Part shown: one piece after another, positions 5,787 to 61,757 of the stretch
How positions within the stretch are numbered: the first letter of the stretch is position 1
Layout of the letters: the number at the start of each line of letters is the position of its first letter
Sequence record: MT446413.1
Source of the DNA: Escherichia virus TH42
DNA: 64,000 nt
Direction: 5' to 3' (one strand)
Program-made: the position numbers and the translations under genes
Notes under the pieces: model-generated
The model's database searches: none
What the model was told of the DNA's origin: nothing
What the model saw: only the letters and a program-made list of their open reading frames with translations

Positions 5787-5813
5787 TGGTGGACTATCTG
5801 GAATCGAACCAGA
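5787..5813 (-). tRNA. tRNA-like 3' fragment (T-arm, acceptor-like strand, CCA)
   Basis: Minus-sense TCTGG-TTCGATT-CCAGA then TAGTCC-A-CCA; no 5' acceptor partner found by hand within 120 nt. Confidence 0.3.
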
Positions 5814-5911
5814 AGCTCACTAAGAAAGCAATTCCCACTGTTATAAAAGCACTTGCCTCAACAGGGATACACTAACTCTGGTGCCGTACCCATACTAGCC
5901 CTTGTTTAAAA

Positions 5912-5940
5912 TTGGTCGGGACGGAAGGATTCGAACCCTC
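5912..5940 (-). tRNA. tRNA-like 3' fragment (T-arm, 7-nt acceptor strand, A, CCA)
   Basis: Minus-sense GAGGG-TTCGAAT-CCTTC then CGTCCCG-A-CCA; only about 25 nt separate it from the preceding element, so it cannot be a full tRNA. Confidence 0.3.
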
Positions 5941-5964
5941 TTACGTTGATTTAAAAGCTCTTAG

Positions 5965-6043
<79 letters not shown>

Positions 6044-6066: not shown

Positions 6067-6318
6067 TTAACTGAAAATACGCAAGGCCACATCATGACCG
6101 ATATGACCGGGAACTTTGTGCTGCTCTATTTTCAAACAGAGTTTACAAACACGAGACACACGAGACTCTTTCGCTTCGACTGGAGTGTCTTTAGCGTGAG
6201 TGATGTGTAGGTTTTCAGTGATCACCCACTCGTGTTTACATCCAGAATCTTCGGGCTTTTTCTTACGAAAGAACATAATACCCCTTAGATCAGATCTGTT
6301 TTCTTGTGCAGACCACAC
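6067..6318 (-). CDS. small zinc-ribbon-like protein, paralog 1 (83 aa)
   Basis: Track ORF; CKHEW...CKLC pattern shared with the 6285..6449 and 6459..6644 ORFs. Confidence 0.45.
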   Translation of the reverse strand: MWSAQENRSDLRGIMFFRKKKPEDSGCKHEWVITENLHITHAKDTPVEAKESRVSRVCKLCLKIEQHKVPGHIGHDVALRIFS

Positions 6319-6449
6319 ACTTTACAGCGAGAGTAGATACGCAACCCTTGTCGCTCTCTGTCAGTAAGTTTATTTGTGATCGTCAGTTCATAAGTATGAA
6401 GATCTTCCCACTCATGGAAATGAAAGAAACGTTTGAACCATTTAATCAT
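6285..6449 (-). CDS. small zinc-ribbon-like protein, paralog 2 (54 aa)
   Basis: Hand-translated: MIKWFKRFFHFHEWEDLHTYELTITNKLTDRERQGLRIYSRCKVCGLHKKTDLI; below track cut-off. Confidence 0.4.
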   Translation of the reverse strand: MIKWFKRFFHFHEWEDLHTYELTITNKLTDRERQGLRIYSRCKVCGLHKKTDLI

Positions 6450-6458
6450 AATGATTCC

Positions 6459-6644
6459 TTAGATTACATCACGATGACTAACATCACCACACACCTTACA
6501 CTGAATAACGTAACGTGTGCCCTTGTCATTGTTCCCATCTGAATCTGTATAGACCAGAGGACGGGTGTTAATAATCTTCCAATCATGACAATGGAAGACA
6601 CGCTTTAGCCATTTAATCATACTAAGCACACGCCGGTAATTCAA
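6459..6644 (-). CDS. small zinc-ribbon-like protein, paralog 3 (61 aa)
   Basis: Track ORF; MIKWLKRVFHCHDW...CKVCG matches paralog 2. Confidence 0.45.
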   Translation of the reverse strand: MNYRRVLSMIKWLKRVFHCHDWKIINTRPLVYTDSDGNNDKGTRYVIQCKVCGDVSHRDVI

Positions 6645-6912
6645 TTAACTGAGGAGTACGACAAGGGCCATCCTCATACACACCTACTAGTGTTGGCATG
6701 TAAGGCCCAGCGCACTGGTATTCATCGAACAGTTCGTTATAGGTAGGCTTCCACTTCCAAGCCCACACATAGCCCATTCGATCAATGGCAATGTAACGAG
6801 TGTTCAGAGGAACCTGCATCATCACATCACCAACTGCTATTACTTTCGTAATAACTGCTGCTCGGAAGTTTGTCTTCATAGTCTCACCGCTTAACCATAA
6901 ATTGATACTCAC
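6622..6912 (-). CDS. hypothetical protein (96 aa)
   Basis: Track ORF on block strand. Confidence 0.5.
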   Translation of the reverse strand: MSINLWLSGETMKTNFRAAVITKVIAVGDVMMQVPLNTRYIAIDRMGYVWAWKWKPTYNELFDEYQCAGPYMPTLVGVYEDGPCRTPQLIELPACA

Positions 6913-17233: not shown

Positions 17234-17425
17234 GTGGATTTAAGAGTGAGGAACAACTTTATGTGGAAATTGAAGATGATTATCAGGCAGATTAAATGTA
17301 ATCACGAGTACTACCCAATCCGGATATCGAGAGGTGATGAACGGTTACATGCTTATTACAAGAGTACATGGAGGTGTGCAGATTGTGGTAAGGTTAAGAA
17401 TAGTAAATGGGTGGATAGGCCTTAA
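17234..17425 (+). CDS. small zinc-ribbon-like protein (63 aa)
   Basis: C..H....C..C pattern; first plus-strand ORF after the divergent region. Confidence 0.4.
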   Translation: MDLRVRNNFMWKLKMIIRQIKCNHEYYPIRISRGDERLHAYYKSTWRCADCGKVKNSKWVDRP

Positions 17426-60934: not shown

Positions 60935-61129
60935 TTAGATAACCTTGTGCTTATAGATGCTAGGGTTGAAGTAGTGCAACCAGTTTATATACTGTTTCTG
61001 TTCGAGGTAGTGTCTGCAATCATGACAAAAAGCATGACCCAAACCCGTTTCCTCGTTCAGTTTGAAATTGATAAGAAGCTTATGCTTTTTGCATAAGCTA
61101 CATGCTTTAGTGATTTTCACGTAATGCAT
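60935..61129 (-). CDS. small zinc-ribbon-like protein (start moved to internal Met)
   Basis: Track ORF 60935..61243 overlaps thyX by 137 nt; MHYVKITKACSLCKK...CHDCRHY from Met at 61129 reduces overlap to 23 nt. Confidence 0.35.
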   Translation of the reverse strand: MHYVKITKACSLCKKHKLLINFKLNEETGLGHAFCHDCRHYLEQKQYINWLHYFNPSIYKHKVI

Positions 61130-61757
61130 CCCATGAGATTGGGAAAAGTTTACGAAGCTCTTCATCAATAGTTGATGCGAACAAACGCACCTCATACTGA
61201 GCATGGTCTGACAGACGTTGACGACACAACTCTGACCAACCAAATAAAGAACCTGTCCACACCCACTCAGTGATCATGCCCTGAGGCAATACGAACCGAG
61301 CTTGCTCTGGAGCGATAAACTTAATCAATTCATCATACGACTCAAGAGCTGTTTCATATGCTCGATTAATCAGAACTAGTGCAGAGTTTTGTGCTCCTGT
61401 GGTGAGGAGATTCCCCGCACCTGCATGGAGGTCCGAAGGTCTTTCAAAAATCTCTTTAGGGATGAAGAGTTCAACTGCTCCATCTTTATACCGCCGGGAC
61501 ATTTCGTTCCACGAGAATCCAACTTGATGCTTGCCCAACTGTCTCGCAATTGCGATTGGCGCTTTGCATCGGAAGCTAATTGTTGGATGACGGAATGGTG
61601 TGACATGCTTTTCTCTGGCAAGGAACTTGATAAGGCGTTCATCTCGTTCATTTAACTCTCCTTCACGAGTGACCCCAAAGGAAACTCGAGCTGCATTAAC
61701 AACAGATTTATCAGAACCCATTGCTTCGATTAGTGTTGCTTGTAATTGTTCATTCAT
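61107..61757 (-). CDS. thyX: FAD-dependent thymidylate synthase ThyX
   Basis: VVNAARVSF, HVTPFRH and RQLGKHQVGFSWNEMSRRY match the ThyX signature region, with KHQ where RHR is usual (recalled consensus). Confidence 0.65.
   Translation of the reverse strand: MNEQLQATLIEAMGSDKSVVNAARVSFGVTREGELNERDERLIKFLAREKHVTPFRHPTISFRCKAPIAIARQLGKHQVGFSWNEMSRRYKDGAVELFIPKEIFERPSDLHAGAGNLLTTGAQNSALVLINRAYETALESYDELIKFIAPEQARFVLPQGMITEWVWTGSLFGWSELCRQRLSDHAQYEVRLFASTIDEELRKLFPISWDALRENH

Follow-up and report, generated by a model that had tools for sequence, protein, structure and literature searches.

In the early regions of phage genomes, few unexplained genes are as common as small zinc-ribbon ORFans. Described phage proteins of a comparable kind include P2 Ogr and P4 Delta (Pfam Ogr_Delta) and Mu Com (Pfam zf-Com). 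These are basic proteins of about 50-70 amino acids with a single metal site, which is formed by four Cys ligands. Another known arrangement is the N-terminal HHCC domain of retroviral integrases. It is a helical bundle in which two His residues, spaced H-x3-7-H, are followed by Cys-x-x-Cys, with about 25-30 residues between the pairs. Among solved structures, the N-terminal zinc ribbon of NrdR (PDB 9gex, 7p37, 9fxk) is a three-stranded antiparallel sheet with two metal half-sites.

A precedent for counter-defence by phage proteins of this size and kind is Enki. It is a predicted zinc-ribbon protein of 52 amino acids from Vibrio phage 1.080.O, and it inhibits AbiH and a type II retron (bioRxiv 10.1101/2024.06.14.598830).

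The genes described here, ORF1 to ORF4, lie in the window, the whole stretch of 64,000 nucleotides that was analysed. Their products have the size, the single putative metal site and the basic character of Ogr, Delta and Com, but their ligands are H2C2 or C3H rather than four Cys. The ligand order and the spacing of the pairs are those of the integrase HHCC domain. Unlike that helical domain, the family has an H-x-H pair, an all-beta prediction and no Pfam match. The NrdR ribbon resembles the predicted fold in its sheet and its two half-sites; its second half-site is a C-x-x-C-G turn, as in ORF2 and ORF3, and the identity is 22-28% over 40-50 columns. Enki is alike in being a tiny phage protein of the zinc-ribbon type, but differs in the spacing between His and CxxC. 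Its score of -0.3 bits against the family HMM rules it out as a relative. The locus is best described as a well-behaved accessory array, and not as a new kind of system.

Judged by its sequence, the window comes from a Kuravirus (phiEco32-like) coliphage. The 3-kb stretch around the array is 96% identical to Escherichia phage vB_EcoP_HC-25922, and 90-95% identical to many other Kuravirus and Suseptimavirus podophages (Gordonclarkvirinae, phiEco32-like). The counterpart region in phiEco32 is a leftward-transcribed early gene cluster, read by host sigma-70 RNA polymerase (PMC8948821; PMC9965538). By synteny with that cluster, the array of ORF1 to ORF3 lies inside a minus-strand early-gene block. 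The block is headed by a near-consensus sigma-70 promoter immediately 5' of its first gene, and the array lies about 9.7 kb downstream. A first-pass annotation of the sequence had placed these genes in an early region, which the synteny and the promoter both support. A scan for promoters and terminators within the array gave nothing above chance. The features are as follows.

16325-16298, minus strand: near-consensus sigma-70 promoter, TTGACA-16 nt-TATAGT, 11/12 positions
6622..6879, minus strand: upstream neighbour of ORF3, PHROG 1972, function unknown, TAG stop codon
6459..6620, minus strand: ORF3, 53 aa, MIKWLKRVFHCHDW...CKVCG..., H-x-H/C-x-x-C, PHROG 8294, "type B" allele
6285..6449, minus strand: ORF2, 54 aa, MIKWFKRFFHFHEW...CKVCG..., tandem paralogue of ORF3, PHROG 8294, "type A" allele
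6067..6276, minus strand: ORF1, 69 aa, MFFRKKK..CKHEW...CKLCL..H.V.GHI..., C-x-H/C-x-x-C, PHROG 13426
17261..17425, plus strand: ORF4, 54 aa, MWKLKM..CNHEYY...CADCGK..., C-x-H/C-x-x-C, PHROG 7696

The region 6067-6644 had been said to hold three small ORFs, adjacent or overlapping. Three minus-strand ORFs are indeed present there. With start codons taken from annotated related genomes, they are adjacent and do not overlap. The packing is tight, with spacers of 8-9 nt. The Shine-Dalgarno sequence of ORF2 (AAGGA) overlaps the stop codon of ORF3, and that of ORF1 (AGGGG) overlaps the stop codon of ORF2. The ATG of ORF3 follows 1 nt past the TAG stop codon of the gene at 6622..6879, which suggests translational coupling. 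Compared with other Kuravirus orthologues (9-14 synonymous and 1-6 non-synonymous changes), ORF1 has a pN/pS of about 0.1. The value for ORF3 against NJ01 is 0.08, and for ORF2, from very few substitutions, it is 0.4-0.8. All three ORFs are annotated in relatives, as hypothetical proteins in dozens of genomes. Because of this packing and coupling, the low pN/pS of ORF1 and ORF3, and the annotation in relatives, the three ORFs are real genes, of which ORF1 and ORF3 are under purifying selection.

Two of the three are closely related to each other. ORF2 and ORF3 are 41% identical over their full length of 54 aa (BLASTP, E 1e-13). Their DNA carries direct repeats in register, of 43 nt (81% identity), 15 nt (93%) and 14 nt (86%), at a spacing of 171-174 nt. 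The longest of these runs from the start codon to the FH.H.W motif:

6579..6621: 5' direct repeat, ORF3 copy, 81% identical to the ORF2 copy
6408..6450: 5' direct repeat, ORF2 copy

Full-length similarity together with in-register DNA repeats points to a true tandem duplication, so that ORF2 and ORF3 are, on sequence grounds, genuine tandem duplicates. The 5' direct repeat is a likely substrate for unequal recombination.

One consequence of such recombination is that related phages may differ in copy number. Nine related loci were annotated with the HMMs. In addition to types A and B, there is a type C, the allele like phiEco32 gp107, with 44-54% identity to A and to B alike. phiEco32 itself has gp107 as the one gene that corresponds to ORF2 and ORF3. 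The arrays are arranged as follows.

This window, HC-25922 and Bas87: B (ORF3), A (ORF2), ORF1
EK010: C, A, ORF1
ECBP2: B' (48 aa), A', ORF1
SU7: A, ORF1
NJ01: B, ORF1
XT32: C', ORF1
phiEco32: C alone
YF01: C', then an HNH endonuclease

The related phages therefore carry one, two or three array genes, of three allelic types. The flanks are about 76-99% identical where blastn aligns, and the gene in the first position may differ by about 50%. Relative to the window, SU7 looks as if 6451-6573 had been deleted, with the junction within the 43-49-nt 5' repeat of ORF3 and ORF2. Unequal homologous recombination between paralogues would be expected to leave such a footprint, and the SU7 variant looks like a product of such an exchange between the 5' ends. 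The intact family member of SU7 (L024 1201-1365) is unannotated and lies between SU7_101 and SU7_100.

In the phage collection, tblastn finds the ORF3 type in 34 records (at least 90% identity), the ORF2 type in 33 (at least 80%) and ORF1 in 47 (at least 90%). At least one member is found in about 90 of about 100 Gordonclarkvirinae (coliphage) records.

The border of the array is also rearranged. In the window, the tRNA-Arg locus at 5789-6043 is scrambled and consists of three pieces:

5965..6043, minus strand: tRNA-like element adjoining ORF1 downstream, anticodon loop CUUCUAA (Arg-UCU), Rfam 36 bits
5913-5960, minus strand: 3' third of a YF01-type tRNA-Arg, including CCA
5789-5900, minus strand: about 112 nt long, with a T-arm, a stem resembling an acceptor stem and an ACCA end; no model matches it

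The first of these forms the 3' border of the array; its D-arm is nearly absent and it contains a 20-nt insert. With ARAGORN, neither the window nor HC-25922 yields a tRNA, and 7/8 other relatives scanned yield one tRNA-Arg(UCU), the exception being XT32. At this one position, the tRNA-Arg(UCU) of Kuraviruses is of at least three sequence types that are unrelated to each other (Bas87/phiEco32, NJ01 and YF01), which implies repeated gene replacement and not drift alone. In YF01, an HNH endonuclease (L026 1388-1837) occupies the slot of ORF1, between the zinc-ribbon gene and the tRNA. Its position fits a homing or recombination hot spot.

The relationship of ORF1 to the duplicated pair is more distant. 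The first-pass annotation had read all three genes as paralogues that share MIKW[LF]KR.FH.H[DE]W and a CK(V/L)CG motif. This holds for ORF2 and ORF3. Among the three, the motif MIKW[LF]KR.FH.H[DE]W with CKVCG is common to those two only, and ORF1 has just C-K-H-E-W and C-K-L-C-L. By BLASTP, ORF1 does not match ORF2 and is 22% identical to ORF3 (E 0.001), a similarity below that between ORF2 and ORF3 and not that of a third tandem copy. ORF1 is instead a distant relative from a separate family. Its homologues occur in Certrevirus and in rV5-like myophages and other Vequintavirinae, at 42-49% identity, and this distribution of its own suggests a separate acquisition.

ORF4 is the fourth Cys/His gene. 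With its true start at 17261, it is the first plus-strand ORF past a gap of about 950 nt, and so does head the plus block as had been proposed. The gap separates it from the promoter of the minus block, is largely without ORFs (three, of 41-61 aa) and probably holds the genome end. An ORF4 counterpart is annotated in phages Paul, Bas94 and LAMP. The phiEco32 homologue (L018 253-417) is unannotated, and the deposited phi32_1 CDS (296-496) is in another frame.

An alternative to common descent is that only ORF2 and ORF3 are related, and that ORF1 and ORF4 converged on a generic Cys/His metal site, so that the array would be a pair beside an unrelated protein. Besides the BLASTP results, the PHROG assignments agree with this. 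ORF3 (E 2.5e-24) and ORF2 (E 1.5e-17) match PHROG 8294 across positions 1-56 of its 56; ORF1 matches 13426 (E 3.6e-36, a full-length HMM match) and ORF4 matches 7696 (E 2.9e-12). All three PHROGs are annotated "unknown function". ORF1 also has its own C-terminal extension, along with its own range in the Vequintavirinae. When profiles are compared, with the ORF1 profile built from Vequintavirinae homologues, hhalign gives a probability of 69% (E 4.5e-5, 39 columns) for ORF1 against the main family and 79% (E 1.5e-5) for ORF4, and no higher. Between the ORF1 and ORF4 families there is no match.

Several observations argue against convergence. The window has 966 stop-to-stop ORFs of 30 aa or more, and all were scored with a family HMM from 130 members. 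The four genes rank at the top (ORF3 2e-27, ORF2 3.5e-21, ORF1 3e-4, ORF4 4.5e-3), followed by a fifth ORF at E 0.18. The ORF1 alignment takes in both half-sites, with equal spacing and the conserved aromatic residue after His. The C-x-H variant of ORF1 and ORF4 is also used by 17/130 family members, and the predicted order of secondary-structure elements is identical in ORF1 and ORF3. Convergence is judged rather unlikely. The link of ORF1 and ORF4 to ORF2 and ORF3 exists at the profile level only, where the resemblance appears to be more than chance, and the two are probably distant members of one superfamily rather than recent copies.

The plain pattern [CH]xH-(10-60)-CxxC occurs six times in the six frames of the window, four of these being ORF1 to ORF4. 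The sole other long ORF with [CH]xH...CxxC, at 61016-61183 on the minus strand, contains CSLCKKH...CHDCRH, lies near or within a 216-aa ORF at 61107-61757 and receives no score from the family HMM.

The extent of the main family was determined by a HMMER scan of 1.84 billion cluster representatives with a profile of ORF2 and ORF3, at a cut-off of E <=1e-3. It contains 132 clusters, nearly all of them stand-alone proteins of 47-70 aa. Ligand positions were counted in an alignment of 130 of these clusters. In ORF3 numbering, the conserved positions are:

Position 10: His 110/130, Cys 17/130 (H/C 127/130)
Position 12: His 128/130
Position 14: Trp 122/130
Position 41: Cys 129/130
Position 44: Cys 130/130
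Position 45: Gly 124/130

The signature of the family is thus [H/C]-x-H-x-W, about 26 residues, and then C-x-x-C-G. The four putative zinc ligands are each conserved in at least 97% of the 130 homologues and are present in ORF1 to ORF4; such conserved [H/C], H, C and C columns suggest a four-ligand metal site. The first half-site is H-x-H in 106/130 members and C-x-H in 17/130, the form used by ORF1 and ORF4. Since it is not the canonical C-x-x-C knuckle, the family would be a variant ribbon. The proteins are basic, with a net charge of +3 to +4; the family median is +3, and the values for ORF1 to ORF4 are +3 to +8.

Neither the four ORFs nor any of the 130 relatives has a Pfam match at the gathering score, including to Ogr_Delta and zf-Com. 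The four ORFs have no significant match in NCBIfam, and in PADLOC they give one chance-level match only (E 0.028). Neither profile matches the PDB sequences; weak, sub-threshold matches include several zinc ribbons of ribosomal proteins and translation factors. None of the libraries searched assigns a function to any family member. A word-indexed protein search with ORF3, ORF1 and ORF4 returned near-identical sequences only, and a locus search of IMG/VR returned three Kuravirus loci only.

The fold of these proteins can be predicted. An AlphaFold2 model of ORF3 made from six sequences (pLDDT 79.4) has a helix at 2-8 and strands at 14-25, 31-41 and 47-52. H10 and H12 come right before strand 1, and C41 and C44 are in the turn that links strands 2 and 3. 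The model is a three-stranded antiparallel sheet with a helix, in a zinc-ribbon topology. For ORF1, three sequences only were used, and the low-confidence model (pLDDT 60.6) has the same order of elements as ORF3, with an additional C-terminal strand and helix. In a Foldseek search of the PDB with the ORF3 model, the N-terminal zinc ribbon of NrdR came first, with a probability of 0.96-1.0 and E 0.2-0.5. No fold search gave a significant match to any solved structure. In BFVD, the ORF3 fold recurs in many small uncharacterised proteins of phages, including Bacillus, Synechococcus, Pseudomonas, Acinetobacter, Salmonella and crAss-like phages.

The case for a zinc ribbon, the fold named in the earlier reading, rests on the modelled topology and the conserved ligands, with NrdR as the best structural match, which is not significant. 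The predicted fold is consistent and the similarity reaches beyond the short motif, so this reading is not refuted.

Family members are also found outside the Kuraviruses. Six metagenomic contexts were sampled, and all are phage-like runs of small co-directional genes, with no recurring neighbour across the six. Members lie between a NusG-like gene and a terminase, between the parts of a DNA polymerase A that is split in two, close to an HNH endonuclease, or in arrays of ORFans. On the contig with the split polymerase (L031 2126-2296, a metagenomic phage), the member and a 129-aa ORF separate the family-A polymerase fragments. At the NusG-like locus (L007 2015-2649), the member overlaps the stop codon of the NusG-like gene (PF02357), just 5' of the terminase, in a phage with a P22-type portal. 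This overlap recalls the Spt4-Spt5 pairing of archaea and eukaryotes.

Duplication and fusion have occurred elsewhere in the family. An independent tandem pair is present on a 102-kb metagenomic phage contig (L027), and one protein of 182 aa (P0098) consists of three fused family copies. In the Pseudomonas Bruynoghevirus phages, intact members lie in the early region and are often unannotated. The copy in phage TL scores 41.8 bits; it is located at about 1480-1641 of that locus (L032), in a frame other than that of the annotated gp08. Residues 1-41 of LUZ24 gp12 correspond to the first two-thirds of a family member. The CxxCG turn is lost, and this remnant is fused in frame to the downstream protein, a homologue of TL gp09.

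The LUZ24 ORFan screen (PMC4635203) was considered as a functional handle, and its growth-inhibitory gp11 is not a family member. Since LUZ24 carries the truncated, gp12-fused remnant only, that toxicity screen is uninformative for the family.

When 185,579 species genomes of bacteria and archaea were scanned with the motif of one subgroup, a single chromosomal locus was found, in Methylobacterium, where the context is uninformative. Given this one locus and the six phage-like contexts, the family appears, on present sampling, to be largely a phage gene family.

Part of this was already known, as the genes are present in PHROGs and are recorded as hypothetical proteins in dozens of genomes. 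PHROGs keeps 8294, 13426 and 7696 as unrelated families, whereas here they are joined at the profile level into an [H/C]xH...CxxC superfamily. This joining is new, as are the size of the superfamily, its ligand signature and the recombination-driven variation of the array.

The model proposed for the locus is a small cassette array in a sigma-70-driven early operon of a Kuravirus, whose products are stand-alone proteins about 50-70 residues long. The predicted fold of each is built around a single zinc ion, held by the [H/C]-x-H just before strand 1 and by the C-x-x-C(G) turn that joins strands 2 and 3. This would give a three-stranded, zinc-ribbon-like sheet with a helix alongside, N-terminal in ORF2 and ORF3 and C-terminal in ORF1. 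The tandem duplication behind ORF2 and ORF3 would have copied a unit about 174 nt long, and the conserved 5' ends of the two genes may still recombine, giving one-copy and two-copy variants. ORF1 would belong to the same superfamily, as an older member that was acquired separately. This structural and evolutionary description of the array is very likely correct.

The functional part of the model is less secure. The proteins are too small to be enzymes, and more likely serve as binding modules, stabilised by zinc, for some host macromolecule in early infection. Their most likely target would be a variable host protein, which would imply counter-defence or takeover, a plausible role that the first-pass annotation had already raised. 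Differing allelic types and extra copies could then widen or change the range of targets. Zinc binding itself is putative, as are the role in binding and the kind of target. As a whole, the proposal of an early cassette array of zinc-stabilised, host-binding modules stands at about even chances. For the target, a variable host protein is the tentative first choice, at somewhat below even probability. It is favoured because of the allele swapping, the copy-number polymorphism, the recurrence of tandem and fused copies, and the rearrangement hot spot. Other outcomes are possible at a lower probability.

Another model is that these are small nucleic-acid-binding regulators of transcription or translation, like P2 Ogr/P4 Delta, Mu Com or the NrdR ribbon, which act on phage or host DNA, on RNA or on RNA polymerase. 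The net positive charge is what would be expected of such proteins, and the best analogue among solved structures, the NrdR ribbon, is a DNA-binding one. The weak profile matches to ribosomal and translation-factor zinc ribbons point the same way, as does the overlap of one distant member with the stop codon of a NusG-like gene in a phage. At least one copy is kept in most Gordonclarkvirinae records; given this retention and the basic charge, a nucleic-acid or regulatory role fits at least as well as counter-defence does. However, neither the four ORFs nor the 130 relatives match Ogr_Delta, zf-Com or any other zinc-finger regulator in Pfam. There is no conserved neighbour or target site, and the NusG adjacency occurs in one lineage only. 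Replacement of alleles and changes of copy number between near-identical phages would also be unusual for a core regulator. Binding to nucleic acid or to the transcription or translation machinery is a possible but less likely role.

A reading of the ORFs as filler, selfish or decaying, at a recombination hot spot beside a tRNA gene, with no function for the phage, is very improbable: the locus is highly rearranged, with variable gene content, the HNH endonuclease of YF01, three unrelated tRNA-Arg types, scrambled tRNA pieces in the window and the truncated, fused remnant of LUZ24 as a parallel, but ORF1 and ORF3 are under purifying selection, the ligands are near-perfectly conserved across 130 divergent homologues, and the reading frames are intact and the ribosome-binding sites preserved in all relatives examined.

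Under the preferred model of binding to a variable host protein, a bolder extension can be stated, although it is improbable. On this view, the [H/C]xHxW...CxxCG proteins would be modular zinc-ribbon inhibitors of phages and together make up a single large superfamily that has gone unrecognised. Each of types A, B and C, ORF1 and ORF4 would act against its own variant of a host target in defence or takeover. Phages would retune or broaden this specificity by tandem duplication, by domain fusion and by exchanging cassettes through recombination at the conserved 5' end. The BASEL study found the Gordonclarkvirinae to be broadly resistant to restriction-modification systems, without a known basis (PMC11990801). 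If the extension is true, such a superfamily could contribute to this resistance.

The cluster is now a defined, testable family, with a ligand signature, 132 sequence clusters and natural one-, two- and three-copy variants. Family members are present in the BASEL phages Bas86-Bas91, which infect an E. coli K-12 derivative with restored O16 O-antigen. If a target is found, small proteins encoded by Kuravirus, Bruynoghevirus, cyanophages and many metagenomic phages would gain an annotation.
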